DNA of 32,906 bases from Candidatus Woesearchaeota archaeon (GTDB lineage Archaea; Nanobdellota; Nanobdellia; SCGC-AAA011-G17; JAGVZH01). Numbering within the stretch: the first letter of the stretch is position 1; each line of letters opens with the position of its first letter. Both the position numbers and the translations under genes were made by a program. Below, in pieces: positions 4,009 through 21,035 of the stretch. The notes beneath the pieces were generated by a model that saw only the letters and a list, made by a program, of their open reading frames with translations, was not told where the DNA came from and searched no databases. Location: contig JAGVZH010000002.1 in the NCBI GenBank assembly GCA_018302745.1, positions 1-32,906 on the forward strand, read 5' to 3'.

Positions 4009-4096
4009 AGTGTACTTGTTTTTATGTTATTCCCCTATTATATTAATATCCTCGTATAAAAGAAAGATATTATGAGTAAAATGGTAGAATATCAAT

Positions 4097-4702
4097 ATGA
4101 TAAAAGAGCTAGAAAAGAAAGCATATTCAAATCCTAATACCCTCCCACCAAGAGCATTACTTCTTAATGCATTAGAACTTACTCCCATTGAGAAAACTAA
4201 AGTCGTTATTCTTGGACAAGATCCTTATCATGGCCAAGGAGAAGCCAATGGTTTGGCTTTTTCTGTAAATAAGGATATTAGAATACCTCCCTCTTTAAGG
4301 AATATATTCATTGAACTTCACAATGATTTAGGATTAGAAATTCCTAAATATGGAGATTTAACTTCTTGGGCTAAACAGGGAGTCCTACTACTTAATAGTG
4401 TGTTAACAGTTGAAAAAGATAAGCCAGGATCTCACAGATACATAGGGTGGGAGAAATATACAGATAGTTTAATATCCGAGATATCAGAAAAAAAAGAACA
4501 TGTAGTATTCATTCTTTGGGGTAAGTATGCTCAAAGTAAAGTTTCTTTAATTGATAATAGTAAACACTTAATTCTCCAGTCCCCTCATCCATCACCTTTC
4601 TCTGCAAGAAAAGGTTTTTTTAATAGTAAGCCTTTTAGTAAGTGTAATACATGGTTAAAAGAAAAAAATATTAAAGAGATTGATTGGGAATTAACGACTT
4701 AG
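4097..4702 (+). CDS. ung: Uracil-DNA glycosylase, family 1
   Basis: VVILGQDPYHGQGEANGLAFSV (GQDPYH water-activating loop), LLLNSVLTVE and HPSPFSA (HPSPLS leucine-loop motif). 201 aa. Confidence 0.9.
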   Translation: MIKELEKKAYSNPNTLPPRALLLNALELTPIEKTKVVILGQDPYHGQGEANGLAFSVNKDIRIPPSLRNIFIELHNDLGLEIPKYGDLTSWAKQGVLLLNSVLTVEKDKPGSHRYIGWEKYTDSLISEISEKKEHVVFILWGKYAQSKVSLIDNSKHLILQSPHPSPFSARKGFFNSKPFSKCNTWLKEKNIKEIDWELTT

Positions 4703-4735
4703 AGAAGAAGCTATGAGGATGTTGTATAATAGGAG

Positions 4736-5077
4736 ATGATTGAAAATGGTTATGAGAAAAAAGAAACACCATTCTTCTCAATGGATATACAAGATAGTAG
4801 ATATCAAATATATTTCAATAGTGACAAGGTAGAAAAATATGAACCGTATGGGGTGATATCCACTATTCTTGAAGATGATAAATTTCTTGAAGAAGAAATA
4901 TCAGTAGAAGAATGGGTAATAAGATTGCTAAGACATTTCGGAAGTGCTGAAGACATTAAACAGGGAGGTATCTCCTACTCTGTTGATGAAGATAAAAAGC
5001 TAAGATTCTTTGGTGAGTTTGGAACTCTAACATTAGATAAAGATTCTAATCTTCTATACGAAAGCGAATCTACTTAA
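4736..5077 (+). CDS. Hypothetical small acidic protein (113 aa)
   Basis: ORF immediately downstream of ung. About 27 D/E versus about 13 K/R by hand count. No family recognised. Confidence 0.5.
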   Translation: MIENGYEKKETPFFSMDIQDSRYQIYFNSDKVEKYEPYGVISTILEDDKFLEEEISVEEWVIRLLRHFGSAEDIKQGGISYSVDEDKKLRFFGEFGTLTLDKDSNLLYESEST

Positions 5078-5741
5078 TCTCTACTCCCCCAAATACTACC
5101 CCTCCAGTTATTTCTAATACTGGCTCTGTAACCTCACTCTCTTCTACCTTAGGTTCCCATCCACCAAACACACCTGTTCCTTTAGTAATAACTCTACAAT
5201 TTTTTGGTACAAATATTTCTACACCACCAAATGCACAATTAACATGTAACTTAGCTCCTTCTTTTGCAACTTTTGCTTCTCTTAAATCTAATCCTATTCC
5301 CCCAAATGCAACATTTAGTTCTCCACCTTTGAAATTCTTAGAATTAACCTTTTTATCTACTCCCCAAAATATCGCCGTTTCATTTACATAATCTTCAGAT
5401 GAATACTTACCCTCTTTTTTAACAGGTATATCTTTTTTAATTAACATTGATATTCCAATAGCTATTATTATTACTGGCCATAATACCGAAAAGAAATTCC
5501 AGGAGAAAAGGTTAGTAGCCAAAAATACAGTTCCAAGTACAAGTATCACAATTCCGGGTGTAAAATTCTTCTCTAATAGGAATTTAGTTCCTAAAAATAT
5601 TAAAACTAATGGCCAAAACTTCCATATTATTGACCAAAGAGATACTCTAAATGGAGAAAAAATACCAGTTTGATCCATTAGAAATATTAATCCTAAGAAT
5701 ACAAGAAATACTCCAAAGATAAATTTTGAGTTGTCTTTCAT
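5070..5741 (-). CDS. LiaF-like cell-wall-active-antibiotic response membrane protein
   Basis: N-terminal multi-TM region with WPLVLIFLG-type helices. C-terminal repeats AFGGIGLDL / AFGGVEIFVP / VVFGGVEIK are typical of the LiaF C-terminal domain. Confidence 0.65.
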   Translation of the reverse strand: MKDNSKFIFGVFLVFLGLIFLMDQTGIFSPFRVSLWSIIWKFWPLVLIFLGTKFLLEKNFTPGIVILVLGTVFLATNLFSWNFFSVLWPVIIIAIGISMLIKKDIPVKKEGKYSSEDYVNETAIFWGVDKKVNSKNFKGGELNVAFGGIGLDLREAKVAKEGAKLHVNCAFGGVEIFVPKNCRVITKGTGVFGGWEPKVEESEVTEPVLEITGGVVFGGVEIK

Positions 5742-5758
5742 TATTTAAAAATAATATA

Positions 5759-6766
5759 TTATTTGTTCTCAACACTTAAAGAGCCTACTCCAACATTTGC
5801 TTCAATTATCATTTTTATTTTTGCAGTAGCATAGTTTTCTGATTCATATTTACCATTAGTATCCAACGAATCTGAAATATCTTTACCACCAATCTTAATT
5901 TTCCCAACCCCTAAGTCATATCCAATTTGATATCCAACACCACTAGGAATTTCTAAAATCATAGCTCCTGCTCCAATGTTTAATAGTATCTGACCAGAAG
6001 GTACACTCTCTTCCTCAAAAGATACTGATAATTTCCCTGCTCCTACTTCAGCATAAAGATTGTCTACTTGTAATGTAGACAAATTCATACTTCCATCTCC
6101 TGCGCCTAAATTAATATCAAAGCTAGTTAGAATATCCGGTTGACCAACTCTAAAAACGTATGAAGATTCACTTGACCACATATGGAAACCAATAGGATTT
6201 GCACTTTCAAAATTAATATTTAAGACATCATCTACTTCAGTAGATTCTATTTTATGTTCTTTAAAACCCTCAGGGTATTCTGCTTGCACAAGCATATATT
6301 CTTCAGTTCCCTCATCAACAATTTGGAATTCTGATGCCCCAATATTTAATTCTATACTTCTCTGTTCAATATTAGGAAATTCTTCTAAATCAACTGTAAT
6401 CTGCTTCTCAATCTTTTCAGGATTAAGGTTAAATGCCCTATCTCCACCTTTTAATATCCACTGGTTTACTGAATCTGGAATATATGGAATACCTTTTGAT
6501 GAATACAATACATATGAGACACCAAATACGGATATCATTAAGAATATTGTAATAATAAAGGAGAATATATTCGCTATACGAGATCTACCAAGTATAAATC
6601 TAATACCAATTAATATAATAAATATTGGCCAGAATCTAACAATATATGACCATATCTCCCAGGAAATAATCTTTGTAGTGTTAAGAAGAAGTAGTATACC
6701 CGAAAAAATAAGGAAAACAGCCCAAGAGTAATCTTTAGACTCTTTTCTAACAGAAATATCTTCCAT
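5759..6766 (-). CDS. Membrane-anchored toastrack/DUF4097-like protein
   Basis: N-terminal LiaI/LiaF-like TM segment (WPIFIILIGIRFIL). Followed by repeated beta-strand units NIGASEFQI, NLGAGDGSMNL, EVGAGKLSV, NIGAGAMILEIP, NVGVGSLSV. Confidence 0.5.
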   Translation of the reverse strand: MEDISVRKESKDYSWAVFLIFSGILLLLNTTKIISWEIWSYIVRFWPIFIILIGIRFILGRSRIANIFSFIITIFLMISVFGVSYVLYSSKGIPYIPDSVNQWILKGGDRAFNLNPEKIEKQITVDLEEFPNIEQRSIELNIGASEFQIVDEGTEEYMLVQAEYPEGFKEHKIESTEVDDVLNINFESANPIGFHMWSSESSYVFRVGQPDILTSFDINLGAGDGSMNLSTLQVDNLYAEVGAGKLSVSFEEESVPSGQILLNIGAGAMILEIPSGVGYQIGYDLGVGKIKIGGKDISDSLDTNGKYESENYATAKIKMIIEANVGVGSLSVENK

Positions 6767-6789
6767 AAGAATGAAAAATAAAATTATAT

Positions 6790-7089
6790 TTACTTCTTAC
6801 TATCAGACTCTACACTTTTTTTAATATCTTTTACTACTTTCTTAACCTTCTCTTTAATCTCTTCTGTATTCTTACTCATTACATCTTCAGAAGTTATATT
6901 TGAACTCGATCTAGTAGGAACAACTATCCAAAGTATGATATACAAAAGTAATCCTGTACCGCCATAAAGAACTATCAATGCAAAAAGTAACCTTACTATC
7001 GTTGAATCTATTCCAAAATACTCTCCCAACCCTCCACATACACCTCCAATCATTCTATCTGTCTCAGACCTGTATAACTTTTTATTCAT
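6790..7089 (-). CDS. PspC domain-containing membrane protein
   Basis: [34 protein letters not shown] followed by a TM helix is the PspC-domain signature. It is first in a three-gene minus-strand operon (7089 down to 5070). Confidence 0.8.
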
Positions 7090-7159
7090 TCTTTAAATAT
7101 ACTAACATTTTATATATTCAATCATATTTTAGAACATATTTTTTAAAATGTTAATATGA

Positions 7160-7188
7160 TTGACAACACGAATTGGAAGCAATAATAT
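7160..7188 (+). promoter_or_regulatory. Sigma70-type promoter TTGACA-N17-TAATAT of the copper operon
   Basis: Perfect -35 at 7160-7165, a 17-nt spacer, then TAATAT at 7183-7188. Confidence 0.45.
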
Positions 7189-7211
7189 ATACCCATACCC
7201 TAGGTAGGGAT
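7189..7211 (+). promoter_or_regulatory. Candidate CsoR operator (G/C-tract inverted repeat)
   Basis: ATACCCATACCCTAGGTAGGGAT contains CCCTA-GG-TAGGG (7198-7209), a perfect 5-bp inverted repeat, plus a direct ATACCC ATACCC. It lies immediately downstream of the -10. It resembles TACCC...GGGTA operators of CsoR regulators as I recall them, and a csoR gene ends the operon. Confidence 0.4.
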
Positions 7212-7213
7212 AA

Positions 7214-7597
7214 ATTAAAAATACTATCTCCGCAACCATTATTGCGATTGTAATATTCTCTAAAGATACAAAAAATGCTGAAGATGTAAAAGCTGAAACA
7301 ATTACATCCAATGTATTGGTTGAAGACGGAATACAAGTTATACAAGTTGTATCAACTGGAGGAGGATACTCTCCAAGAACAACAAATGCAAAAGCAAATA
7401 TTGAAACTGTATTAAGAATTAATTCAGAAAACTCATACGGTTGTGAAAGATCTTTTAGAATACCTCAATTAGATATAAATGAGATATTACCTACAAACGG
7501 GATTACAGAGATTGAGCTTGGTAGTCCTAAGGCAGGTGAAGAGATATTTGGTTCTTGTAGTATGGGAATGTACACATTTACAATAAATTTTAATTAA
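7214..7597 (+). CDS. Cupredoxin-like copper-binding protein with N-terminal membrane anchor; probable non-canonical ATT start
   Basis: The track ORF starts at TTG 7316. The frame is open from 7214 and encodes (I)KNTISATIIAIVIFSKDTKNAEDVKAETITSNV, a signal-anchor-like helix plus linker. The C-terminal domain has YGCERSF...GSCSMGM, fitting Cys/Cys/Met ligand spacing. No ATG/GTG/TTG lies in frame between 7214 and 7316. Confidence 0.55.
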   Translation: MKNTISATIIAIVIFSKDTKNAEDVKAETITSNVLVEDGIQVIQVVSTGGGYSPRTTNAKANIETVLRINSENSYGCERSFRIPQLDINEILPTNGITEIELGSPKAGEEIFGSCSMGMYTFTINFN

Positions 7598-7604
7598 AGC
7601 ACAC

Positions 7605-9842
7605 ATGAAAGAAGAAACAGTAGCGATAAAAGGAATGCATTGTGCTAGTTGTGCTTTTAATATTGAAAACAAACTTACAAATAGTAAGGGTGTGAAAAAT
7701 GTAAAAGTAAACTATGCAACAGAGAAAGCAACAATAATATACGATGACACAGTTACATCAGTAGAGAATCTAAATGCTGATGTGAAAGATATTGGATACG
7801 AATTAGATATACATACAGATAATCATGCTCATCATAAGTTAGAAGAGTTAAACAAGCAAAGAAATAGACTCTACTTTCTACTACCAGTTGCCACCTTTCT
7901 CTTTCTTTTCATGCTCTACGATTTAATATCTCAAAGAGTATCATACCTTCCTATGATAGAGATAAATATGGTGGTATTTAACTCTATTCTCTTCTTGATA
8001 TCTACTGTAACTATATTTATCTTTGGTAAGCAATTTGTAGAAGGATTACTCAGATTCATCAGAGGTAAGGGTGCTGATATGGATACACTAATTGGATTGG
8101 GAACAATTGCAGCATATATTTACAGTACTGTACTCCTTGTATCTCTCCTTTTTAATATAGAACTAGGATTACCTGAATCAATGTATTATGATTCTGTAAT
8201 CATAGTAATTGGGTTTGTACTTCTAGGAAAGTTTTTAGAAGCAAGATCAAAGATAAAGACTGGAGAAGCAATACAGAAATTGTTAAACCTTCAAGCTAAG
8301 ACTGCAGTAGTTGAAAGAGATGGTAAAGAAAAAAAAATAGATGTATCAGAAATAGTAATAGGAGATATATTAATAATAAAGGCTGGAGCAAAGATTCCTG
8401 TTGATGGAAAGATAGTAAGTGGTTTGGGAGTATTAGACTTAGCAATGCTTACTGGAGAACCCATTCCTGTTGAAAAAACAATTGGAGATGATGTTTTTAG
8501 TGGTTCAGTAAACAAACAGGGATATTTTAAATTCAAAGCTCTAAAAGTTGGATCCGATACCATGCTTTCTACAATAATAAAAATGGTAGAAGAAGCACAA
8601 AACAGTAAAGCCCCTATACAAAACCTCGCAGATAAAATATCTAGTATATTTGTACCTACAGTATTAGTAATTGCAATCCTTTCTCTACTTGTATGGATAT
8701 TTGTAGGGCAACAGTACCTACCATTTAACGATGCCCTTACATATGGTATATCTTCTTTTGTTGCAGTATTAGTAATTGCGTGTCCATGTGCTCTAGGACT
8801 AGCAACACCTACTGCAATAATTGTAGGTGTAGGAAAGGGTGCTCAGAATGGAATATTAATTAAAAATGCAGAGAGTTTAGAAAAACTTTATAAGGTTGAT
8901 ACAGTAATATTTGATAAAACAGGAACATTAACAAAAGGACAGCCAGAGGTAACAGACATAATATTTAATGGTAAAGATAAGGATAATATACTAAGTCTTT
9001 TGTACTCACTTGAAGAGAAGTCAGACCACCCATTGGCAATAGCTATTCAAAATAAGGCGAAGGAGTTAAATATTAAACTTAAAGTAGTTGATAATTTTAA
9101 AAATATAGATGGTAGAGGTGTAAGTGGAACTATTGAAAAAAACTCATATTATGCAGGAAATTCCAAATTTATCGAAGATCTTGGAATAACTGTAGACAAG
9201 AATATTCTTAAAGAACTTTCTAAAGAAGGAAAAACACCAATAATATTTGCAAACAGTAAGGAGACACTAGCAATTGTTGTAATTGCAGATCAAATAAAAA
9301 AAGAAAGTAAAAAAGTAATAGAAGAACTACACTCTCTTGGAATAAAAACTGCAATGTTAACTGGAGATAATAGTAATGTTGCAAATAATATAGCAAAAGA
9401 CTTGGATATAGATATGGTATATGCAGAAGTATTACCAAATGAAAAAGCAAATATTGTTAAAAAATTACAAAACAATGGGAACTTTGTAGCTATGGTAGGA
9501 GATGGAATAAATGATGCTCCTGCACTTGCTCAATCAAATGTAGGTATAGCAATGGCAACAGGTACTGATATAGCAATAGAATCATCTGATATAACACTTC
9601 TTGGTGGAGATATTAGTAAATTACCAAAGGCATTAAAATTATCAAGGAATACGATGAAGACAATTAAACAGAATCTCTTCTGGGCATTCTTTTATAATAT
9701 ATTAGGAATACCTCTTGCTGCTGGTCTTTTCTATCCAATGTTTGGAATACTACTTGAACCTGCGTTTGCTGGTATCGCCATGGCATTAAGTAGTGTAACA
9801 GTTGTTAGTAACTCTTTAAGATTAAAATTAACTAAAATATAG
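7605..9842 (+). CDS. copA: Copper-translocating P1B-type ATPase
   Basis: N-terminal HMA domain GMHCASC, TM CPC motif (ACPCALGLATP), DKTGTLT phosphorylation site and GDGINDAP hinge. 745 aa. Confidence 0.93.
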   Translation: MKEETVAIKGMHCASCAFNIENKLTNSKGVKNVKVNYATEKATIIYDDTVTSVENLNADVKDIGYELDIHTDNHAHHKLEELNKQRNRLYFLLPVATFLFLFMLYDLISQRVSYLPMIEINMVVFNSILFLISTVTIFIFGKQFVEGLLRFIRGKGADMDTLIGLGTIAAYIYSTVLLVSLLFNIELGLPESMYYDSVIIVIGFVLLGKFLEARSKIKTGEAIQKLLNLQAKTAVVERDGKEKKIDVSEIVIGDILIIKAGAKIPVDGKIVSGLGVLDLAMLTGEPIPVEKTIGDDVFSGSVNKQGYFKFKALKVGSDTMLSTIIKMVEEAQNSKAPIQNLADKISSIFVPTVLVIAILSLLVWIFVGQQYLPFNDALTYGISSFVAVLVIACPCALGLATPTAIIVGVGKGAQNGILIKNAESLEKLYKVDTVIFDKTGTLTKGQPEVTDIIFNGKDKDNILSLLYSLEEKSDHPLAIAIQNKAKELNIKLKVVDNFKNIDGRGVSGTIEKNSYYAGNSKFIEDLGITVDKNILKELSKEGKTPIIFANSKETLAIVVIADQIKKESKKVIEELHSLGIKTAMLTGDNSNVANNIAKDLDIDMVYAEVLPNEKANIVKKLQNNGNFVAMVGDGINDAPALAQSNVGIAMATGTDIAIESSDITLLGGDISKLPKALKLSRNTMKTIKQNLFWAFFYNILGIPLAAGLFYPMFGILLEPAFAGIAMALSSVTVVSNSLRLKLTKI

Positions 9843-9843
9843 T

Positions 9844-10851
9844 ATGAGTAATACAAAAGAACTATATGTAACAGGGATGCATTGTAAGTCTTGTGAAGTC
9901 CTCATTGAAAACAAATTAAACAAAATAGATGGACTTAAGGATGTAAAAGCAGATTTAAATAGCAATAAAGTAAGTTTTAGAACAGAACAAAGTAATAAAG
10001 AAATCATTAAAGAAATTAATGATGTGATAAAACAACACGGATATACAGTACAAGAGCAACAATTAAAGAATAAAGTTGATTATAAAGAATTCGTATATGC
10101 CTTATTAATAGCTACTGGAATCTCTACAATATTTGTTGTAATTCAAAATTTAGGTGTAACAAATCTTGTTAACGCAGGAACATTAACATACCCAGTAGTG
10201 TTTCTAATTGGAGTAATAGCCTCAATATCTACATGTATGGCTGTAGTTGGAGGTCTAGTACTTTCAATATCCTCTACATATGCAAAAAGTAAATCTAAAG
10301 GTATTCCACTTACCCTATTCCATATTGCAAGATTACTCTCCTTTTTTATTCTTGGTGGAGTATTAGGATATATCGGAACTTTCTTTACCCTATCTTCCAC
10401 CTTCTACTTTGTAATCAGTACTGTTCTTTTCTTTGTAATGGTAATACTTGCTATAAACCTATTAGATATATTTCCATTTTTTAACAAATTACAATTAACT
10501 ATGCCAAAGCAACTAACATCTGGCATATTAAAAACAGAAAAGATGAAGAATATCTTTACTCCAATTCTATTAGGAGCAAGTACCTTTTTCTTACCATGTG
10601 GTTTTACTCAATCTATGCAGATTAATGCAATAGCTTCAGGTAGTACATTAAATGGTGCATTGATAATGTTAATATTTGCACTAGGTACATTACCAGTACT
10701 AGCTTTAATATCATTCGGCTCAACTAAACTAGCTAAATCAGCAAGATCCTCTCTTTTTTTTAGAGCTTCTGGCTTCTTAGTTCTTTTCTTTGCAATATAT
10801 ACCTTCCTTACTTCGTTAGTATCAATAGGTATTATTAAACCTATATTTTAA
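9844..10851 (+). CDS. HMA-domain fused to DsbD_2/TauE-like polytopic membrane protein
   Basis: N-terminal GMHCKSC heavy-metal-associated domain followed by ~6-7 TM helices with an FFLPCGFTQ motif. Confidence 0.65.
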   Translation: MSNTKELYVTGMHCKSCEVLIENKLNKIDGLKDVKADLNSNKVSFRTEQSNKEIIKEINDVIKQHGYTVQEQQLKNKVDYKEFVYALLIATGISTIFVVIQNLGVTNLVNAGTLTYPVVFLIGVIASISTCMAVVGGLVLSISSTYAKSKSKGIPLTLFHIARLLSFFILGGVLGYIGTFFTLSSTFYFVISTVLFFVMVILAINLLDIFPFFNKLQLTMPKQLTSGILKTEKMKNIFTPILLGASTFFLPCGFTQSMQINAIASGSTLNGALIMLIFALGTLPVLALISFGSTKLAKSARSSLFFRASGFLVLFFAIYTFLTSLVSIGIIKPIF

Positions 10852-10869
10852 CTTTAACTATTTATACAT

Positions 10870-11121
10870 ATGCATACAGAAAAACAAAAAGCTTTAACAA
10901 ATTTTAAAAAAGTACAAAGCTTAATGGGTAAGATGATTAAAATGACTGAGAATGACGAATATTGTATTGATATAATGCAACAGAATTTAGCAGCCATTGG
11001 GATACTTAAATCGGCTCATCAGATATTAATGGAGAATCATCTTAATCACTGTTTTACTACAGCTATGACATCAAAACAGAATAAGAAGAAAGAACAAACA
11101 GGACTTGGAAAATGGGCTTAA
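10870..11121 (+). CDS. csoR: CsoR/RcnR-family metal-sensing transcriptional repressor (C-terminus looks atypical or truncated)
   Basis: ENDEYCIDIMQQNLAAIGILKSAHQILMENHLNHC carries the Cys...His...Cys metal-ligand pattern of the DUF156/CsoR family. The tail ...KKKEQTGLGKWA lacks the usual amphipathic end of helix 3. Confidence 0.7.
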   Translation: MHTEKQKALTNFKKVQSLMGKMIKMTENDEYCIDIMQQNLAAIGILKSAHQILMENHLNHCFTTAMTSKQNKKKEQTGLGKWA

Positions 11122-12551
11122 GATGGAGCAGATTTTTTTACTCTATTATAAAGTCTTACTAATTCTCTTGGAATTCTGTCTTTAGGATCTATATTATTGG
11201 CAATAGTTGTTCTTAATATTTCTAACCTGTCTCTGTGTCTTCTAGCCTCTTCTAGGGATGCTGCTAACTGTCTTTTAATTTGTATTGAAGTCCCACATAA
11301 TTCCCTGATATTATTCCAATCTGCTGGAGGTGTCCAAATAGCATTTCTGATTTCATTTAATCTAGCTCTAAAAAGGTTTGTTAAGTTTGTTACACCTTCC
11401 ATTTCTTGATAAAACTCTGAACCTTCTCTAATCTCATTTATTAAAACATTCAAATCCTCACTATACACTCTTACTATTCTTTCTAATTCCTCAACTGCTC
11501 CAGGAATCCCTCTAAAACTTTCCCTTGCATCTCCTGCATATTGTTCTAAGTACGCTAAAAGCCTTTGAGGCTGTAAATTAAATATATTTTCTATAACTCT
11601 CTGAATAATTAGGTTATAATCTTCTATTTTATTTTCACTTTCTACTATGCTTGTCACTTTCTTTTTTACTACACCTTCAGCCCTTTTAATGTCCTCTTGG
11701 CTAATGCCTACTCTCAATACAGAAGAGTCAATTAATGGTATTATTCCCTCTAATTCTTTAATCTGCTTTGAAGTTTCTTTAACTTCATTAATAAAAGCAT
11801 TTCTTTCATCTGAAAGATTTGTTCCTCTTACACCTTTCCAAAAATCTCCAAAAACTCCTCCTAAATTTCTTAAGTCTTTTCCAGCTTTAGCAGATGCAGC
11901 CCTAGCAAGATCACTCATTTGCGGACTGGATGTTAACCTTTCATGGATATCCTGCATTGTTTTCTGGCTTGGAGTAAATGCTCTTCTGCCAAATGAGATT
12001 ATTCTAAATACAATTACAAAGAAGCTTATTAATGCTATGATGCTTATCAAGCCCCAAATAATATCCCATGGACTTTCTGACACAAGTTCGATAAAGAAGA
12101 ATTGACCAGCCAGCCATACAACAAAAAAAGCAATAGAAGCAGCCCCAATTTTGTCATTATATCCTGGAAATCCAATTCCAACAAACATTCTGTAAATTAA
12201 AAAAGCGCCAAAAATGATAAGCAAAGCTCCAGCAACAGGCCCTGCTATTTCTAATAAATCAGGCTCTAATCTTATAAGGCCTAAAGCTAAAAGCAAACCT
12301 AAAGCCCAGATAAGTATCTTTCCGCCTGTTTTTCCTTCCAGTCTTTTCCCCAATCCTATGTATACTACGCTGACAAAGAAAAGAAGGATTATTATTGCAG
12401 ATATCCAAGGTCCATTAGTAGGAGAAGTAATAAGGCCAGAAAGCTGCAGCATAATATTGCTAACAGGTTCAAAAAGATTTTGAGCTAGAACAGAAGGAAT
12501 TGCAAATAAAGAAGCTAAGAAAATGCTGCTTAATAACCTCTTTTTGTTCAT
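11118..12551 (-). CDS. Hypothetical polytopic membrane protein with long C-terminal alpha-helical domain (477 aa)
   Basis: Signal-like N-terminus MNKKRLLSSIFLASLFAIPSVLAQ, about 6-7 TM helices, then ~280 aa of helical and charged sequence. No family recognised. Confidence 0.55.
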   Translation of the reverse strand: MNKKRLLSSIFLASLFAIPSVLAQNLFEPVSNIMLQLSGLITSPTNGPWISAIIILLFFVSVVYIGLGKRLEGKTGGKILIWALGLLLALGLIRLEPDLLEIAGPVAGALLIIFGAFLIYRMFVGIGFPGYNDKIGAASIAFFVVWLAGQFFFIELVSESPWDIIWGLISIIALISFFVIVFRIISFGRRAFTPSQKTMQDIHERLTSSPQMSDLARAASAKAGKDLRNLGGVFGDFWKGVRGTNLSDERNAFINEVKETSKQIKELEGIIPLIDSSVLRVGISQEDIKRAEGVVKKKVTSIVESENKIEDYNLIIQRVIENIFNLQPQRLLAYLEQYAGDARESFRGIPGAVEELERIVRVYSEDLNVLINEIREGSEFYQEMEGVTNLTNLFRARLNEIRNAIWTPPADWNNIRELCGTSIQIKRQLAASLEEARRHRDRLEILRTTIANNIDPKDRIPRELVRLYNRVKKSAPS

Positions 12552-12582
12552 ATTATCACTCTTTATAATGAAACTTTAAGAA

Positions 12583-12594
12583 ATATTTAAATAT
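12583..12594. promoter_or_regulatory. Palindromic TATA-like element ATATTTAAATAT between divergent genes
   Basis: Perfect palindrome centred ~27 nt upstream of the trm5 ATG (12616) and ~37 nt upstream of the divergent ATG (12551). Confidence 0.4.
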
Positions 12595-12615
12595 AAACCT
12601 TTCGGATTAAATGAA

Positions 12616-13335
12616 ATGAAATCATACAATTTAATAGGTTCTATAGCTGTTTTAAACGAGAAGACGAGAAATAAGGAAAAAACAGCTGAAGAACTGTTAA
12701 AAAAGCACAAAAACATAAAAACAGTAGTGATAAGCAAAAGTATTCATTCTGGATTATACAGGTTGAGAAAAACAAAGCATATTTTGGGTGAAAAAACAAA
12801 AGAAACTATACATAAAGAAAATAAATCAGTATTAAAGCTAAATATAGACGCATGCTATTTCTCACCAAGAACTTCCTCAGAAAGATTAAGGATAGCAAAA
12901 TTAGTAAAGAAAAGTGAAGTCATCTTAGTAATGTTTTCTGGAATAGCCCCTTATCCAATTGTAATAGCAAAAAATGCAAATCCTAAAAAAATTTATGGTA
13001 TTGAAACGAACAAAGAAGCGCACAAATATGCTTTGGAGAATATAAAATTAAACAGATTAAACAATATAGAATTAATAAGAGGAAATGTAAAAAAAGTAAT
13101 GCCTAAATTAAAAATAAAATTTGACAGAATCATAATGCCTCTTCCAAAAACATCTTTTAGATATTTTGACCTCCCAATTAAAAATTTAAAGAAAAAAGGA
13201 TATTTACATTATTACTTGTTTGCTAAAAGACTTCCTAAAAAAGATATTAAAGGATTAAAAATTAAGAAAGTAACAAGATTAAACCAGATTTCTCCTGGAA
13301 AATACAAGTACTGCATAGACTTTCAAAAAGCTTAA
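12616..13335 (+). CDS. trm5: tRNA (guanine37-N1)-methyltransferase Trm5/Taw2-family, short form lacking the D1 domain
   Basis: Starts with a D2-like YNLIGSIAVL. SAM motif I VMFSGIAPYPIVIAK and the IIMPLPKTS catalytic (NLPK-like) loop are present. 239 aa. Confidence 0.65.
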   Translation: MKSYNLIGSIAVLNEKTRNKEKTAEELLKKHKNIKTVVISKSIHSGLYRLRKTKHILGEKTKETIHKENKSVLKLNIDACYFSPRTSSERLRIAKLVKKSEVILVMFSGIAPYPIVIAKNANPKKIYGIETNKEAHKYALENIKLNRLNNIELIRGNVKKVMPKLKIKFDRIIMPLPKTSFRYFDLPIKNLKKKGYLHYYLFAKRLPKKDIKGLKIKKVTRLNQISPGKYKYCIDFQKA

Positions 13336-13359
13336 ATACATTGCAAATAAAATTTAATA

Positions 13360-14010
13360 ATGCCAAAAAAGAGAAAAAATAGGTCAGCAAAAAAAAGAGG
13401 CAAAAAACCTTCTTTAAAGTTAATTGATCAAAAGTTGAACTTAATTCTGAAAAAAGAGAATAGGCAGCTAAAAGGGCAGAAGAAATTTTTTAAACTGGAA
13501 AAAGAGCAGTTAGAGGAAGTTGAAGATTTTGAAAACTTGGAAAGAAAGCAGTTAAAGGAGCTTTCTGGCATTGAAGAATTGGAAAGAGAAATAAAAGAGC
13601 AGGTTTCTCCGCATCCATTAAGAAGAATTACAATTAGGGATATAAGCAAAGCTTTGATAGGAGCATTTATAGGAATAATTTCTCATTTTGCATTTTCAGA
13701 AGGGGCACATTTAGCAGAAGGAGTGTCTGTAGGAAGAGCATCTTTTATTTTATTAGTGTCTTTTTTAATAGGGTTTATTTTTATTTACCTTACTGGTTAT
13801 AGAAAAATTTTAGACAGAAAACTTTTATTTTTCCTGCCTGTTAGATTAGTGGCAATATATTTAGTAACTTTAGCAACTGTATTTTTTGTGTTATACACTT
13901 TTAATTTCACAGTCGGGGCAGACATAAGTTTAATATACAAGCAGGTAGCTGTAGTATCATTGCCAGCTATTATTGGGGCAAGCGCAGCTGACTTAATCGG
14001 AAGAGAATAA
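13360..14010 (+). CDS. Hypothetical protein: basic/coiled-coil N-terminus plus 4-TM C-terminal domain
   Basis: MPKKRKNRSAKKRGKKPS..., a charged heptad-like stretch, then four hydrophobic helices. Confidence 0.5.
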   Translation: MPKKRKNRSAKKRGKKPSLKLIDQKLNLILKKENRQLKGQKKFFKLEKEQLEEVEDFENLERKQLKELSGIEELEREIKEQVSPHPLRRITIRDISKALIGAFIGIISHFAFSEGAHLAEGVSVGRASFILLVSFLIGFIFIYLTGYRKILDRKLLFFLPVRLVAIYLVTLATVFFVLYTFNFTVGADISLIYKQVAVVSLPAIIGASAADLIGRE

Positions 14011-14399
14011 TGGAAGAAAAGGAAAAAAGAAATTTTAGAATAAAATCTACATTTCATAATTTAATAGATAAACTTATAGATACTCTAATAAGCGAGATAA
14101 ATGAAGGCAGGCAGACAAAACTTACTGAAGATTTCCAGAAATATTTAATAGAGTTAATATCAATAACTGGAATACAAAGTAAAAAAGAACAAGATTCCGG
14201 ATTAAAGAGAATATTTGAGAAACAAGAAAAATCCTTAAAGAGTTTGTTATTATCAATTAACGAAATTAAAAAGAAAATTAAATTAGGAGAGACTACAGAC
14301 AGCTCATCAATAAGAAATTCTGCAGATGAATTTAAAAAATTGCTTAAAGAAGAAATAGCTTCTAAAAGCAGTATGAAAAAAAACAAAGAAGCAGCCTAA
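14010..14399 (+). CDS. Hypothetical coiled-coil protein (129 aa)
   Basis: K/E-rich helical ORF whose start overlaps the upstream stop (TAATG at 14008-14012). The antisense ORF 14054..14386 has the F/S/L-rich look of a shadow frame. Confidence 0.4.
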   Translation: MEEKEKRNFRIKSTFHNLIDKLIDTLISEINEGRQTKLTEDFQKYLIELISITGIQSKKEQDSGLKRIFEKQEKSLKSLLLSINEIKKKIKLGETTDSSSIRNSADEFKKLLKEEIASKSSMKKNKEAA

Positions 14400-16186
14400 A
14401 TATTCAATTTTAATCTCATTCTTGATGATTTGATTGCACTAGGAGCTTCTCCACCATGCCAGCTGAATCTTGGCCTTATTCTCATTGGATAAATTCTTTC
14501 GGAATTATCATCTAAAATGACAGCAGCACCTTTCTCACCAGGCAATTCATTTACAGCTTCTGTTAACCCTCTTACCATATAACTTTGCATCATTGCATTT
14601 AATGCATCAACATCTTTTTTAGCAGTTATTTTATGAGCTATTATTAAATCACTTTGAGTTAAAACATCTCCATGTATCTTTCCAGGCTGCTGTGTAGCTA
14701 GGATTAAACTGATTCCTGGCTGCCTTCCTTCCTTGAGTATTGTAACTAATGCATCTGTAGCAGCATTCTTTCCTTTTTCTGGAAGAAATTCATGGCTTTC
14801 ATCTATGACCAGCCAGACCATCGGCAATTTGCTTTCAGTTTCTTCTTCACCAGTTTCTCCCAAGTAACTATAGCCTTTTTGTACAGCATCTAATTCCTCC
14901 TGCTTTCTGGTAATCATTCTTTCTGTAAATAATTTTTTTGCTATCAAACCTACTGCCAGTCCTTTGATTCCCCATCCTCCAGGAGTTGTAGCATAGCAGC
15001 TTACATCTAAAACAGAGACTTGCCCTCCTTTGATAATGTCTTTTATTTTTGTCCCCCCTTTATCAAATAATCCCCAGTCATTTGCTGTTAACAATAGGCT
15101 GATTGTTTTATTTTTTGTATTTTCATCAGATTGAATATCTCTTTGAACAGCATCTGCGAAATCCTTAACACTATAATTTTGCCCTTCCAATCTTTTTATT
15201 ACTCTATGCATTAATACTCCTGAAGAGCTGAACTGCTCTATTCCAAAAGCATTGCACCAGTCTAAAGCATCTAATTCATTTGGTTTAATTGAAAATGGAA
15301 AATCTGTTGGGATTCCATCTTCCAAATACTGTTGGTAATATCCCTTTGGGGTGTAAATCTTAATGTCTAATCCTTTGCTTTCTAAATTCCATTGCTTCAA
15401 CAAATCTTCGTCCTTTCTGTTTTCAGTTTTCATTGTCCAAAAAATTCCCATAGTATCTAAAATTAAAACAGCAACATTATTTTTGACTTCTTCAGGAAGA
15501 TCAGCAACACCTTCTGCTATGACTCCTTGTGAATAGCTATTATGGACTATAATATCATTAGCAACAAAATTATGAAAGTTTGGAACATTAATATCATAAA
15601 CTGTAAACTTTCCTTCTAGTAATTCCATACTTACTATTTCGTCCCAAAAAATATCCGATTCAGCAAGTAGTTTAATGCCTTGATTTTGATCAGCCTCAGA
15701 GATTTGTAATAAAGTATCTCTTGATGGACTATATCTTAATCTTTCCCTCATTGCTTTCGGATGTTTATAACCAAAAGCCCTTCCAACCTCTGCCCAATTT
15801 TTAGGTTTGTATAAATCCCATACTTCTTTTGGAATTGTATCAATATTTGGATTTCTGATAGTTTTATTTAAATAATCTAAAGCTAATCCTTCTTTAATTT
15901 TTTTTATACCAAAGAAACCTATATTTTCTATAAATTTTTTAACATTTACCCCATTAAGCACTAATTCAAAGGCATCCTTATAATAACCATTATATTTAAC
16001 TTTTTTATATCTAAGTTTGGATAAAATGTCAAATCGTAGTAATAAATTTTGTATTTGTCTAATAAGCTTTTCAGAAGAAGAACTGTATGATACCTCCCAA
16101 TCTCCTTTATTTAGATGATAAATGCTTCCATCGCATGAAAATAATCTATTTAAGAATAATCTAATGCCTTCTTTATTTAAGGCCAT
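14396..16186 (-). CDS. HerA/DUF87-like P-loop ATPase: C-terminal intein part (residues 1-216) plus C-extein (from Ser217)
   Basis: LAGLIDADG-2 FLNRLFSCDGS; intein blocks F/G VYDINVPNFHNFVANDIIVHN followed by +1 Ser. The extein SYSQGVIAEG...MVWLVIDESHEF (Walker B)...ATQQPG is typical of HerA-like ATPases. Confidence 0.8.
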   Translation of the reverse strand: MALNKEGIRLFLNRLFSCDGSIYHLNKGDWEVSYSSSSEKLIRQIQNLLLRFDILSKLRYKKVKYNGYYKDAFELVLNGVNVKKFIENIGFFGIKKIKEGLALDYLNKTIRNPNIDTIPKEVWDLYKPKNWAEVGRAFGYKHPKAMRERLRYSPSRDTLLQISEADQNQGIKLLAESDIFWDEIVSMELLEGKFTVYDINVPNFHNFVANDIIVHNSYSQGVIAEGVADLPEEVKNNVAVLILDTMGIFWTMKTENRKDEDLLKQWNLESKGLDIKIYTPKGYYQQYLEDGIPTDFPFSIKPNELDALDWCNAFGIEQFSSSGVLMHRVIKRLEGQNYSVKDFADAVQRDIQSDENTKNKTISLLLTANDWGLFDKGGTKIKDIIKGGQVSVLDVSCYATTPGGWGIKGLAVGLIAKKLFTERMITRKQEELDAVQKGYSYLGETGEEETESKLPMVWLVIDESHEFLPEKGKNAATDALVTILKEGRQPGISLILATQQPGKIHGDVLTQSDLIIAHKITAKKDVDALNAMMQSYMVRGLTEAVNELPGEKGAAVILDDNSERIYPMRIRPRFSWHGGEAPSAIKSSRMRLKLNI

Positions 16187-16788
16187 TATACTCTTAGGAA
16201 TGTATTTTTCAAGAGAACTTTTATTGTTCCTTTAAGGAATCTGCCTGTTGTTTTATCTCTGATTATTTTTGAATCTAAAACTATTGTATTATGGTGGTGC
16301 TGGGTTAATCTGTAACATCCTTTTTTCTCTTCAACAACATCTAAAGCAGAATCAAATTTCTTCATACTTTCTTTAAAATCTTTTATTATATCAGGGTCGC
16401 TATTTGAGAATAAAGCAATTTTTTTAGTATGACCCTCTGCTATAAAATATGCAAGAAGTTTTATTCTATGGTGAGGTATAGAATTATTTCCAAAACTATC
16501 TAATCTTCTTGGAACAGCTATTCTAGAACCAACTTTTAACTCATTTACAGGTCTCCAGCTTTTTATAGTTAATAAAGGATGTTCTGGGGTTAATTTAATT
16601 TCCCTACCACTTCTTAATCTTAAATGTATAAGATCTTTAACACTCCTTTTGAAGAAATCTCTTTTTTGTAATTTTTCGATTTTTAATTTTTCATTTAAAC
16701 CTAGAATTTTGTTTTTATTATTCTCTAATTCTTTAATCGGAATTTGCCTTCCATCATCCAACTGTATTAAAGTGTCTTCATGCACACA
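15539..16788 (-). mobile_element. Intein with LAGLIDADG homing-endonuclease domain, inserted in the Walker A P-loop; internally frameshifted
   Basis: Cys1 codon at 16788-16786 and terminal Asn codon at 15541-15539. Excision joins FICGKRGSGK|SYSQGV (GxxGxGKS). Blocks seen: A CVHEDTLIQLDDG, B GREIKLTPEHPLL, LLAYFIAEGH, FLNRLFSCDGS, HNFVANDIIVHN. The segment is 1250 nt, not a multiple of 3. Confidence 0.85.
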
Positions 16789-16974
16789 TTTCCCAGATCC
16801 CCTTTTACCGCATATGAATACAACATGAGATCTATTAACATCCATATAGATATTATTTGCTAAAGAAACTTCCCTGCCCATTTTAACATACTGTCTTCCA
16901 ATTAGGATTAGTCCTTTGTCGCCAAACCTTTTTTTATCAGCTTCGCTTCTGCCAACAATTATATCTGTACCCAT
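16186..16974 (-). CDS. HerA/DUF87-like P-loop ATPase: N-extein (62 aa, ending GKRGSGK) plus N-terminal intein part
   Basis: MGTDIIVGRSEADKKRFGDKGLILIGRQ...VVFICGKRGSGK, then the intein from Cys63. The ORF ends at TAA 16188-16186, which overlaps the ATG of the next ORF (TAATG). Confidence 0.8.
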   Translation of the reverse strand: MGTDIIVGRSEADKKRFGDKGLILIGRQYVKMGREVSLANNIYMDVNRSHVVFICGKRGSGKCVHEDTLIQLDDGRQIPIKELENNKNKILGLNEKLKIEKLQKRDFFKRSVKDLIHLRLRSGREIKLTPEHPLLTIKSWRPVNELKVGSRIAVPRRLDSFGNNSIPHHRIKLLAYFIAEGHTKKIALFSNSDPDIIKDFKESMKKFDSALDVVEEKKGCYRLTQHHHNTIVLDSKIIRDKTTGRFLKGTIKVLLKNTFLRV

Positions 16975-17005
16975 ATGACCCTCTTTTGCAAATTAAACAA
17001 AAAGC

Positions 17006-17020
17006 TTTTAAATATATAAG
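17006..17020. promoter_or_regulatory. TATA-like element TTTTAAATATATAAG shared by divergent herA-like and htpX genes
   Basis: Centred ~30 nt upstream of the htpX ATG (17044) and ~40 nt upstream of the minus-strand ATG (16974). The latter is preceded by GAGGGT, which is SD-like. Confidence 0.4.
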
Positions 17021-17043
17021 GATTTCTAATAGTAAATTCTAAC

Positions 17044-17892
17044 ATGGCAATAATAAACCATATTAAGACTGTACTTTTACTGGGAATATTAACAGCTATT
17101 TTATTATTCTTAGGAAGCTTATTTGGTCCAACTGGATTAACAGTGGCTATTGTGTTTGTAGCTGCAATGAACTTAATTACTTATTTCTTCTCTCACAAAT
17201 TAGTTTTATTAATATACAGGGCAAAGGAAGCAAAGAAATCAGATTATCCGAAATTGCATAAAACTATTGAAGAATTAGCTAAAAAAGCAAATATACCAAA
17301 ACCAAAAATTTATACAATACCTACAAATAATCTTAATGCGTTTGCATCGGGAAATTCTCCAAGAAATGCAGTAGTTGCCTGCACAGATGGAATTTTAAAA
17401 GCTTTAAATCATAATGAATTGGAAGGAGTATTAGCTCATGAGATAAGCCATGTTAAAAACAGAGATATCCTAATTACAACTATAGCTGCTACAATAGGAG
17501 GAATAATATCTTATCTAGCTATGATGGCAAGATTTGGCGCTATATTCGGAGGTATGGGGAACAATAGGGATTCTGGAAATATATTTGCATTACTAGCATT
17601 ATCAATATTAGCACCAATAGCAGCATTAGTTGTTCAATTGGCTATTTCAAGAACTAGGGAATATCAGGCAGATGCTTCTGGAGCAAAATTGATCAAAGAT
17701 GGAGAGCCTTTAGCCTCTGCATTAATTAAATTACATGAGCACAATAAGCATAATCCAATAAGATTTGGCAGCCCTGCAACCTCTTCTTTGTTTATTATTA
17801 ATCCTTTTAGCTCAAGCTTTTTAGTCAATATTTTATCAACGCATCCTGATTATAAAAAGCGAGTTGAAAGATTAAAGGGCATGAAGTTTTAA
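17044..17892 (+). CDS. htpX: Zinc metalloprotease HtpX (M48 family)
   Basis: HEISHVKNRD (HExxH), two N-terminal and two central TM helices, and downstream EYQADA. 282 aa. Confidence 0.9.
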   Translation: MAIINHIKTVLLLGILTAILLFLGSLFGPTGLTVAIVFVAAMNLITYFFSHKLVLLIYRAKEAKKSDYPKLHKTIEELAKKANIPKPKIYTIPTNNLNAFASGNSPRNAVVACTDGILKALNHNELEGVLAHEISHVKNRDILITTIAATIGGIISYLAMMARFGAIFGGMGNNRDSGNIFALLALSILAPIAALVVQLAISRTREYQADASGAKLIKDGEPLASALIKLHEHNKHNPIRFGSPATSSLFIINPFSSSFLVNILSTHPDYKKRVERLKGMKF

Positions 17893-18180
17893 TTAATTTA
17901 TCTTTTCAAGGAATTGTTTAATTTCGCTAACTTTTCTTGGATTCAAAGAAACATGATCACTAGTTCCTTTGCCTGTTCTTTTTGGAAGAATAATTATCCA
18001 TTCATTATTAGTTAATTTTTTTAATGTTTTTTCTACTGCTTTTTGCCCTTTGTGAGTGTTTCTATAATGTTCTGGGACTCCTTTTACAACAAAGTCAAGT
18101 GGAGTATGTTTTCCTCCCCAAACATTTGTACGGACAAGCTTTTGCAGAATAATCTTTTTTAGTTTATCCTCTTCTTCCAT
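17893..18180 (-). CDS. Hypothetical small protein (95 aa), possibly winged-helix
   Basis: ORF abuts the htpX stop with zero spacing (TAATTA). No family recognised. Confidence 0.4.
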   Translation of the reverse strand: MEEEDKLKKIILQKLVRTNVWGGKHTPLDFVVKGVPEHYRNTHKGQKAVEKTLKKLTNNEWIIILPKRTGKGTSDHVSLNPRKVSEIKQFLEKIN

Positions 18181-18284
18181 AAATAGTGTGATGGATTTAA
18201 TTCTTAATAAGCATTGCCTTCGCTTTTTATATATTGATATATAAAAAAGAAAGATTTAAATAATAGCTTATTCTTACAAAGAAC

Positions 18285-18443
18285 ATGGCAGAAGAATCAA
18301 TATTCTTAGAACATGTGGGAGACAGCCCAAGAATGAGAGTCTTACAATACTTAATAGAAGGCAGGGATTTTGATTTTACTCTAACAGATATGCTTAATGC
18401 TGGAGTAAGCTGGGGAACCTTAAATATGCTAATCCCTAAATGA
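18285..18443 (+). CDS. Short ORF (52 aa) resembling the N-terminal half of a small archaeal winged-helix regulator; possibly truncated
   Basis: Hand translation gives MAEESIFLEHVGDSPRMRVLQYLIEGRDFDFTLTDMLNAGVSWGTLNMLIPK*. The GDSPR-RVL-L pattern is HTH-like, but the recognition-helix/wing part is missing. It is below the ORF-track size cutoff. Confidence 0.3.
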   Translation: MAEESIFLEHVGDSPRMRVLQYLIEGRDFDFTLTDMLNAGVSWGTLNMLIPK

Positions 18444-18545
18444 AGTTGAAGTTCCAGCGCAATAAATATTGCTGATGTAGAAGTAAACAGGTGGCTTAAA
18501 ACAATTAATAAAAAACTTTATAAATAGCCTTCTTTCAAAGAGACT

Positions 18546-18830
18546 ATGAAAGTTTCAGAATTACAGGCAAGACAGGGAAAAGTAAATATAGAACTGGAAA
18601 TTATTTCTGTTGAGACTCCAAGAGAATTTAATAAATTTGGAAATACAGGAAGGGTTGCAAATGCAGCAGCAAAGGATGATTCTGGAGAAATAAAATTAAC
18701 TTTATGGAATGGAGAGATAGACCAGGTAAAAGCAGGGGATAAAGTTAGAATAACAAATGGTTATGTTTCAGAATTCCAAGGAGAAAAGCAGTTGTCAGCA
18801 GGAAAATTTGGAAAGTTAGAAATTATTTAG
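18546..18830 (+). CDS. Single OB-fold ssDNA-binding protein (short RPA/SSB-like)
   Basis: 94 aa. VNIELEIISV...RVANAAAKDDSGEIKLTLWNGEIDQVKAGDKVRITNGYVSEFQGEKQLS is the classic OB pattern of short archaeal RPA-like proteins. Confidence 0.7.
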   Translation: MKVSELQARQGKVNIELEIISVETPREFNKFGNTGRVANAAAKDDSGEIKLTLWNGEIDQVKAGDKVRITNGYVSEFQGEKQLSAGKFGKLEII

Positions 18831-19982
18831 CCAGCTAATCTCATCATCATTCAATTCTAATTCATTACTCACGTCCTTATCTATAAAATTTTTATAATAC
18901 TCAAAATTCTTGATGCTTTGCTTAACAGAAGTGTGAACCTTATCTGCCATCTTTTCTGCTATCGATTTCTTTTTGGCATTTTTAATATTTGCCTGCCATA
19001 TCTTCAGTGGCTTCATGCTTCTCTTGTAATTTACAAATCTCATATTTCCATCTTTCAGAGAATTTATCCCTATAGTCATCAAAGCATTCATATAAACTAA
19101 AAATCTCCAGTACTGCCACCTTTTTATTCTTCCGTCATAAACTTTGACTCTGGACAAATAATCAAAAGCCTTTCTTAATTTTTCTCCTTTATGCTCTAAA
19201 GGGATATTCTCTTCAATCCATAAAAAACATTCATCAAGATTAGCATTTACATCTTCAAAAACATTCAAAACGTTTATTCCTTTATCTTCTTGGAAAACTA
19301 TTGACAATGAATTGAAAATAGTTTCTTCTTTTTTCCTCTTGCCAAGTAAATCCAGGTCATTCAATGTTATTTCTTTTTTATTTACAAATACTTGTATGTC
19401 ATTGATACAGGCTCTTAAGTCGTTTCTATTGCTCTTCACTAAATCTTCTAAAACTTCTCTTTTAGCATAAATCCCTTCTTTTGAGCAGATATAAGAGAGA
19501 AAATTAACAATATCATAATTTTTTAAGTCATCAAATTTTATTAACTGGCATTTTTTCTTTAAATCATTAAGCTTCTTGTCATAAGGATCATTAGCAGTCA
19601 TAATAACTGGAAATTTGGCTTTGGATATTAATTTTGCCAGAACTTGTATTCCACCTCTGTCTTTAACTCCTGAAAAATTATCAACTTCATCTATCAAGAT
19701 TATCTTTCCTTTAGAAAACAAGCTTTCCTGCTTTAGGCTGTTTCCAACTATCCTTTCAATATTTTCCTTGTTTCTAATCTCACTTGAATTAATCTCAAAA
19801 ACTTCATAACCAATATCATTTGCTAATGCATAAACAGAACATGTTTTTCCGTTTCCAACACTTCCCCAGATTATTACAGGAGTTTTTTCTTTAACATGCT
19901 TTAATAATTCTTTTAATTGTTTTTCCTGACCAACAACCTCCTTTAAGTTTGCAGGTTTGTATTTTTCTGTAAGAAGTTTCAT
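18816..19982 (-). CDS. rfcL: Replication factor C large subunit
   Basis: TEKYKPANLKEVVGQ, Walker A GSVGNGKT, EINSSEIR, Walker B ILIDEVD, and GG...MTANDPY. Confidence 0.85.
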   Translation of the reverse strand: MKLLTEKYKPANLKEVVGQEKQLKELLKHVKEKTPVIIWGSVGNGKTCSVYALANDIGYEVFEINSSEIRNKENIERIVGNSLKQESLFSKGKIILIDEVDNFSGVKDRGGIQVLAKLISKAKFPVIMTANDPYDKKLNDLKKKCQLIKFDDLKNYDIVNFLSYICSKEGIYAKREVLEDLVKSNRNDLRACINDIQVFVNKKEITLNDLDLLGKRKKEETIFNSLSIVFQEDKGINVLNVFEDVNANLDECFLWIEENIPLEHKGEKLRKAFDYLSRVKVYDGRIKRWQYWRFLVYMNALMTIGINSLKDGNMRFVNYKRSMKPLKIWQANIKNAKKKSIAEKMADKVHTSVKQSIKNFEYYKNFIDKDVSNELELNDDEISWLNNF

Positions 19983-20974: not shown

Positions 20975-21001
20975 AGTCTTTATAAACCCGTATAATGGAA
21001 T

Positions 21002-21014: not shown

Positions 21015-21035
21015 CACGATTAATAGTCAAAGAAA

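Follow-up and report, generated by a model that had tools for sequence, protein, structure and literature searches.

Contig JAGVZH010000002.1, deposited under the name Candidatus Woesearchaeota archaeon (assembly GCA_018302745.1), is 32,906 nucleotides (nt) long, and we refer to this whole stretch of DNA as the window. A switch from bacterial to archaeal DNA at about one third of its length is genuinely present in the sequence. We conclude, with very little doubt left, that the window is an inter-genome chimeric misassembly in which DNA of a WS6 (Dojkabacteria) bacterium has been joined to that of a co-occurring Woesearchaeota archaeon, and that the join does not represent a biological feature. 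It is almost certainly explained without any gene transfer between domains. The comparison rests on assembled contigs, and the chimera is supported on every point that they allow to be checked, short of the reads themselves.

Contigs of two different organisms, one for each side, are collinear with the window at near-100% identity and diverge from it past the breakpoint. At the breakpoint lies a short exact sequence that both organisms have, of the size of a k-mer or a minimum overlap; the oligonucleotide and codon signature shifts abruptly at the breakpoint; and the junction does not recur in independent assemblies or samples. An initial annotation, made from the sequence alone, had described a domain-level discontinuity here. 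This is borne out, with gene content, the shift in composition and the other assemblies all in agreement, and the breakpoint (11078-11098), placed by comparison with other assemblies, falls inside the range that had been claimed for the junction. Two readings had been offered. The chimeric assembly of a bacterium like those of the candidate phyla radiation (CPR) with a DPANN-like archaeon held up, and the lineages can now be named as WS6/Dojkabacteria and Woesearchaeota. The other reading, a bacterial block of ~11 kb resident in an archaeal chromosome, did not: no other assembly examined has the junction, each genome goes on beyond the breakpoint with genes of its own, and the join sits on a 21-mer shared by chance and cuts two genes. 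The parts of the window that bear on the join are as follows.

1..11077: segment of WS6/Candidatus Dojkabacteria (CPR), from ileS (cut at the contig end) to most of csoR; 99.1-100% identity to 11 bacterial contigs
11078..11098: chimeric junction 21-mer AGAATAAGAAGAAAGAACAAA, shared by both genomes and the sole overlap of the two tilings
11099..32906: segment of Candidatus Woesearchaeota (DPANN), from the fen1 tail to Topo VI B/A; 99.5-100% identity to contigs L001-L010 and L023-L029
10870..11121, + strand: fusion open reading frame (ORF) of 83 amino acids (aa), almost certainly artefactual, with CsoR residues 1-76 and the last 7 FEN1 residues
11078..11121, + strand: 3' remnant of archaeal fen1, made up of its final 14 codons and the stop codon; the window lacks the other ~322 codons

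The breakpoint and the true continuations

When the window is tiled with megablast, bacterial contigs account for positions 1-11098 and archaeal contigs for positions 11078-32906, with an overlap of exactly 21 nt. Identity on the left is 100% over 7225-11098 and 99.1-99.8% over 1-7226, and on the right (11078-32906) it is 99.5-100%. For a closer view, 20 independent contigs were displayed, ten with the bacterial and ten with the archaeal locus. They include IDBA-UD scaffolds, MEGAHIT k141 contigs, SPAdes NODE contigs and assemblies of the Joint Genome Institute (JGI), the assembler being judged by the contig names, and they stem from several groundwater samples of the Rifle aquifer (among the sources are ANAN16 scaffolds, PRJNA268031 and several JGI data sets). 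The archaeal neighbourhoods were reached through the 477-aa gene next to the breakpoint, for which 23 of 44 indexed blocks were read, representing 10 distinct neighbourhoods, and the bacterial ones through the HMA-DsbD gene, with 24 of 64 indexed blocks read.

The 21-mer has one consistent setting in each population. It is preceded by ATCAAAAC and followed by TGGTAGAAGAG in all ten bacterial loci, where it covers codons ~70-76 of csoR. All ten archaeal loci have it near the 3' end of fen1, with TTATTGCTGA before it and CAGGACTTGG after it, and the sequence on its 3' side, CAGGACTTGGAAAATGGGCTTAA, is identical across the ten. The window carries the bacterial flank on the left and the archaeal flank on the right. 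When ~27 kb of WS6 DNA is compared with ~34.5 kb of archaeal DNA, the 21-mer is the longest exact match; it is a purine-rich, Lys/Glu-coding stretch of the kind that is typical of AT-rich genomes. Two 1-Mb genomes with this base composition would be expected to have about five 21-mers in common by chance, so the sharing of this one is unsurprising.

Across the 21-mer, csoR runs by chance in frame into the end of fen1. The resulting 83-aa product closes with KNKKKEQ, encoded by the shared 21-mer, and then TGLGKWA before the stop codon, and the Pfam family Trns_repr_metal spans only its residues 4-72. True CsoR is 90 aa long and has the C-terminal end KKKEQMVEEILTVSKLLNK. The C-terminal tail of FEN1, KNKKKEQTGLGKWA, which we take to resemble a PCNA-interaction motif, is joined in frame to CsoR in this almost certainly artefactual protein, which now stands in NCBI nr. 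The 83-aa product is recorded in a single contig, the window itself, as against 35 contigs for true CsoR and 24 for true FEN1, and an exact look-up in the gene-position index returned no record of it. A window-specific variant of pepF and an MCM gene call likewise trace to one NCBI contig of 32,906 bp, which makes the window a complete deposited contig. Neither a junction-specific 62-mer nor a more tolerant 37-mer had any exact match in the JGI metagenome contigs, and the junction is missing from every other displayed contig of either population. The search for the same junction in independent assemblies and samples, which the initial annotation had proposed, did not reproduce it, as is expected if the contig is a chimera.

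What follows csoR and fen1 in nature can be read from the displayed loci. Past the 90-aa csoR, all ten bacterial loci continue with an 85-aa ORF, gltX, an S11 peptidase (a D-Ala-D-Ala carboxypeptidase), aspS, recJ, recX and recA. On the archaeal side, the 477-aa gene is met in all ten loci by a convergent 336-aa gene with XPG_N and XPG_I domains (FEN1) that overlaps it by 4 nt, and never by CsoR; beyond fen1 lie a PDDEXK nuclease, an MreB-like gene, the family-B polymerase gene polB and the M24 methionyl aminopeptidase gene map. Fen1 is intact in the displayed archaeal contigs that reach past the 477-aa gene, with the exception of L010, where a gene of 56 aa is called. The right half as a whole is contiguous in many assemblies, as judged by a look-up of MCM. 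A single odd contig match had raised the possibility of a second chimera at the 362-aa Topo VI-A; this was rejected, as it reflects a different call of the start codon (360 aa elsewhere).

Names in the databases point the same way, which agrees with the taxonomy that the initial annotation had anticipated for the proteins. Among the bacterial matches are the NCBI contigs MEUO01000010.1, DNMJ01000004.1 and LBOT01000020.1 from metagenome-assembled genomes; the last of these belongs to candidate division WS6 bacterium GW2011_GWE2_33_157 and is 100% identical to window positions 6976-11098. It was also what a scan of a genome collection with the 21-mer brought up, a scan that gave a name for the bacterium and none for the archaeon. 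Cluster look-ups return candidate division WS6 or Candidatus Dojkabacteria for the left-hand proteins and for their true neighbours. The archaeal neighbours encoded just outside the window, FEN1 (MBS3145996.1) and PolB/MetAP (MBS3145991.1 and MBS3145990.1), are named Candidatus Woesearchaeota archaeon. One assembly, ERZ28563774 (sample SAMN03842451), has both parts on separate scaffolds: the bacterial one is on scaffold_1738, which continues through the 90-aa csoR to the 85-aa ORF and gltX, and the archaeal one is on scaffold_991, which continues into fen1 and onward. The bacterium and the archaeon therefore co-occur in one sample.

A further observation concerns strain variation on the bacterial side. 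WS6 contigs from different samples (L011-L020 and L030) differ from the window by 0.2-0.9% over positions 1-7226 and match it at 100% identity over 7225-11098, the invariant part being the copper-resistance cluster of copA, HMA-dsbD and csoR. The cluster could have swept through the strains or been exchanged between them recently, or the consensus of the window could be a mosaic.

Gene content, composition and regulatory elements

The two inventories, bacterial on the left and archaeal/eukaryal in type on the right, were confirmed from the ORF listing and from Pfam scans. Thirty ORFs of the window were scanned against Pfam, and the last five right-hand ORFs (28542-32764) were covered through their counterparts in contig L024 only. 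On the left, Pfam identifies a partial ileS, an M3 oligoendopeptidase (pepF), a glycosylase of the UDG superfamily, two LiaF-like proteins, PspC, a cupredoxin-like ORF, a CopA-type P-type ATPase, an HMA-DsbD_2 protein and a repressor of the CsoR family. On the right it identifies, beside the 477-aa protein, Trm5/TYW2, DUF2391, an intein-bearing P-loop ATPase, HtpX, the large and small subunits of RFC, a complete second ileS, TBP, MCM, aIF2-beta, DUF424 and an NMD3-like protein. The genes at the right end (aIF1A, a KH protein, Topo VI B and Topo VI A) are named from the precomputed Pfam marks of their L024 counterparts. The features discussed below are:

2..1381, - strand: bacterial (WS6) ileS, N-terminal 460 codons, cut at the contig end; Pfam tRNA-synt_1
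1446..1616, - strand: T-box-like leader of the bacterial ileS; Rfam RF00230, 43.2 bits, E 3.1e-8, with AGGGUGGUAACGCG
11118..12551, - strand: 477-aa transmembrane/coiled-coil protein, the first intact archaeal gene; no Pfam family, composition of the right-hand type
21036..23942, + strand: archaeal ileS, 968 aa; found by Pfam, and at the same place in all archaeal contigs

Each side has an ileS of its own, as the initial annotation had noted. The WS6 enzyme is 967 aa long at full length in WS6 contigs, and over its N-terminal 460 residues it is 35% identical to the archaeal isoleucyl-tRNA synthetase (IleRS). The domain layout of WS6 IleRS matches that of the archaeal IleRS, C-terminal DUF5915 included. 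The archaeal P-loop ATPase (14396-16974, - strand) contains an intein with Intein_splicing and LAGLIDADG homing endonuclease domains. It is inserted directly after the Walker A motif, between GKRGSGK and C, and the host gene is intact, with 878 aa, in other Woesearchaeota contigs.

The boundary had been described as free of integrases, transposases, tRNA attachment sites and flanking direct repeats, and within the scans that were run this is correct. ARAGORN found no tRNA gene in the window; no integrase or transposase was matched among the 30 ORFs scanned against Pfam or in the L024 marks for the counterparts of the last five; and a search of the boundary for repeats and marks of mobile elements gave short chance matches only, with no significant repeats.

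The base composition gives little away. G+C content is flat at ~0.30-0.35 across the window, and GC content and GC3 are near-equal on both sides. The join is therefore invisible to GC, and it is higher-order signatures that reveal it. Strand-symmetric tetranucleotide vectors of 5.5-kb chunks correlate at 0.93 within the left side and at 0.96-0.98 within the right side, as against 0.80-0.87 between the sides. The left (WS6) side has half the GC-dinucleotide frequency of the right (archaeal) side; it lacks the codons TGC and CTG, its AGC and GGC codons are 4- to 10-fold less common than those of the right side, and it is enriched in GTAC, GGTA and GTA. Restriction-site avoidance and mutational bias are possibilities for the origin of this WS6 oligonucleotide and codon bias. 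A third-order Markov log-likelihood ratio, trained on positions 1-9000 versus 14500 to the end with the middle region held out, places the change-point in the held-out sequence at ~10970-11100, the cumulative maximum being at ~10970. The comparison of tetranucleotides and codon usage that had been suggested for the two sides thus shows different signatures and a switch at ~10970-11100.

Regulatory elements were examined on either side. The T-box-like leader was obtained by a permissive local search of 600 nt; its score of 43.2 bits compares with a gathering score of 93 bits, and at the gathering threshold Rfam found nothing in the window. A terminator hairpin (CCCCUUUGUAA...UUACAAGGGGG, then UUUUUG, ~1398-1450) lies directly upstream of ileS. 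The conserved T-box sequence and a terminator/antiterminator are thus found together ahead of the gene for an aminoacyl-tRNA synthetase. In the alignment Stem I is greatly reduced, with 4 nt in place of 74 model positions. The T-box leader proposed in the initial annotation accordingly stands as far as the T-box sequence and the terminator hairpin are concerned, and falls short in its Rfam score. Like RF00230 leaders, the element precedes ileS and has AGGGUGGUAACGCG, a terminator hairpin and a U tract; unlike the model, it scores 43 rather than 93 bits, has a much shorter Stem I and belongs to a WS6 bacterium, not to an archaeon. Divergent T-boxes of CPR bacteria may escape standard Rfam annotation.

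Promoter-like boxes were inspected by eye. TATAAT-like boxes lie 7-12 nt upstream of several left-hand ATGs, and boxes resembling TTTATATA or TTTAAATA lie ~25-35 nt upstream of many right-hand ATGs, so the -10-like hexamers and TATA-like boxes reported earlier were seen again. Shine-Dalgarno-like motifs are scarce on both sides. The pattern is consistent with two organisms that are mostly leaderless, one having bacterial promoters and the other archaeal ones. A scan for the sigma-70 consensus yielded 32 sites on the left versus 57 expected from shuffles, and 38 on the right versus 46 expected; it does not separate the halves and was dropped as evidence of domain identity. The TTGACA-N17-TAATAT match (7160-7188), which had been offered as evidence of sigma70, carries no statistical weight, consensus matches being fewer than in shuffles. 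The left block belongs to a bacterium, and for this reason the presence of a T-box and of bacterial promoters there is not paradoxical.

How the join may have arisen

Inter-genome translocation is a well-described class of metagenome misassembly that is common in benchmark data (PMC9661791), and it is targeted by tools such as metaMIC, DeepMAsED, ResMiCo and GUNC (PMC9661791, PMC8201837). The window resembles this class in its two collinear blocks, in the short exact repeat of k-mer size at the join, in its truncated genes, in the abrupt change of composition and in a junction that other assemblies do not reproduce. It differs from the usual chimeras, which more often involve related strains or arise at conserved genes, in that its partners come from different domains and meet at a chance, low-complexity 21-mer with no homology. 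It is also easy to miss when binning relies on GC or coverage, both genomes being small and AT-rich, with similar GC (~31-33%).

In the explanation we favor, ~11.1 kb of WS6/Dojkabacteria DNA and ~21.8 kb of Woesearchaeota DNA, both from the same Rifle aquifer groundwater, would have been joined by assembly or curation software at the 21-mer that csoR and the 3' end of fen1 share by chance. The published pipeline for these samples used IDBA-UD with k from 40 to 100, error detection by read mapping, repair by local re-assembly with Velvet and extension of scaffolds by overlap (PMC5079060). A 21-nt overlap is short for a primary assembly with k of at least 40, and the join therefore more likely stems from small-k local re-assembly, from end-overlap extension or from a different assembler. 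We infer that no DNA molecule carrying the junction existed in the sample. Several points weigh against this account. IDBA-UD with a minimum k of 40 (PMC5079060) would not join at a 21-mer, and the published settings do not by themselves explain the junction. Evidence that neither a read pair nor a long read crosses 11078-11098 is indirect, since it comes from assembled contigs. Genuine recombination at 21 nt of identity would give the same local sequence, and the indexed contigs were read in part (23 of 44 archaeal and 24 of 64 bacterial blocks).

The foremost rival is a genuine and very recent inter-domain transfer, in which a subpopulation of the Woesearchaeota took up at least 11 kb of WS6 DNA through the 21-nt microhomology, replacing fen1 and what lies beyond it. 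We consider this very improbable, and just as improbable its variant in which the junction is a real molecule from a Woesearchaeota cell possibly touching or feeding on a WS6 bacterium. Bacterial genes have been reported in DPANN archaeal genomes. The window does resemble genuine bacterial-to-archaeal gene transfer in having bacterial-type genes beside archaeal informational genes on a contig attributed to DPANN; the two organisms do co-occur in the same sample, and recombination at a short identical stretch would yield exactly such a junction. If true, the contig would capture the uptake of DNA between domains at a stage when selection had yet to act, with a block whose T-box and bacterial promoters the archaeal machinery could not read. 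The junction, however, is found in one contig only, and in none of the other displayed contigs or the JGI metagenome contigs; it does not recur in independent assemblies of the archaeal population. The window has no second junction and no archaeal DNA on the left: it ends inside the bacterial ileS, the WS6 contigs are bacterial from there onward, and WS6 gene order runs for tens of kb. A transfer would leave little of fen1, which is one of the core genes of replication. Unlike in genuine DPANN transfers, the supposed donor DNA is 99-100% identical to that of a co-occurring bacterium over 11 kb, intergenic DNA and T-box leader included, which means that no amelioration has taken place, and it has kept its bacterial regulatory elements. 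Nor are there hallmarks of integration or of mobile elements; the flanking genes fen1 and csoR are both truncated, and the contig has other assembly defects.

Chimeric molecules also occur in sequencing libraries. A physical chimera formed in library preparation, by ligation or multiple-displacement amplification, and then correctly assembled would account for a junction that is confined to one data set. We hold it to be extremely improbable, for random ligation is not expected to fall exactly on 21 nt that are identical in both genomes, and a single fragment would rarely outweigh the reads of the true continuations in a consensus assembly. Hardly conceivable, and the least credible of all, is the mirror case, a WS6 bacterium that gained at least 22 kb of archaeal chromosome with TBP, MCM, RFC and Topo VI. 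The local junction sequence is all that speaks for it. It meets the same objections as uptake by the archaeon; moreover, the archaeal block is 100% identical to contigs of up to ~90 kb that are archaeal throughout the stretches displayed, and csoR would be truncated, yet an intact copy is present in 35 contigs.

Other defects of the contig and consequences for the record

Apart from the chimeric join between WS6 and Woesearchaeota DNA, three collapsed gaps are found in the window, and in this sense the contig is poorly assembled.

7225..7226: collapsed gap, 38 nt missing; reduces the cupredoxin-like gene, 134 aa elsewhere, to 93 aa; all other WS6 contigs have the missing stretch
16226..16227: collapsed gap, 58 nt missing; breaks the intein-bearing P-loop ATPase (878 aa elsewhere) into two ORFs, one of 262 aa and one of 596 aa
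18441..18442: collapsed gap, 143 nt missing; destroys a 107-aa ORF of other assemblies

None of the three has flanking repeats, and the missing stretches are present in every other assembly. Scaffold_991, from the same sample as scaffold_1738, has a run of N at the 18441/18442 site, and the window itself has no N at all. All three are probably scaffold gaps that were wrongly closed or collapsed.

Two observations on the archaeal side stand apart from these. Many independent archaeal contigs (L024, L025, L026 and L031-L033) stop 80-250 nt past the 240-aa gene, as the window does (32765-32906), and in the sole long archaeal contig there the next genes are those for TrmB, a PIN-MazE toxin-antitoxin pair and a DDE transposase. 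The region past the 240-aa gene is therefore probably one that varies between strains or is repeated, and that breaks assemblies. At the 5' end of the DUF2391 gene, L001 (positions 8869-8999; sample SAMN03842436) has a different, longer sequence than the window (13553-13574), and the gene is called there as 183 and 81 aa, as against 216 aa; this may reflect variation between strains or one more local difference in assembly.

The chimera is no biological discovery, and its value is practical. As it stands, the public contig puts a dozen proteins in the wrong domain of life, whichever bin holds it. Such contigs can give rise to false calls of inter-domain transfer, such as an 'archaeal' UNG, LiaF/PspC, CopA or T-box, and two ileS genes on one contig can inflate duplicate-marker counts, distorting studies of the bacterial gene content of DPANN. 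The record needs to be corrected by a split at 11078-11098, and the collapsed gaps at 7226, 16227 and 18441 need to be flagged. A cross-domain chimera of this kind passes simple binning checks; tetranucleotide and codon signatures, together with comparison across assemblies, expose it.

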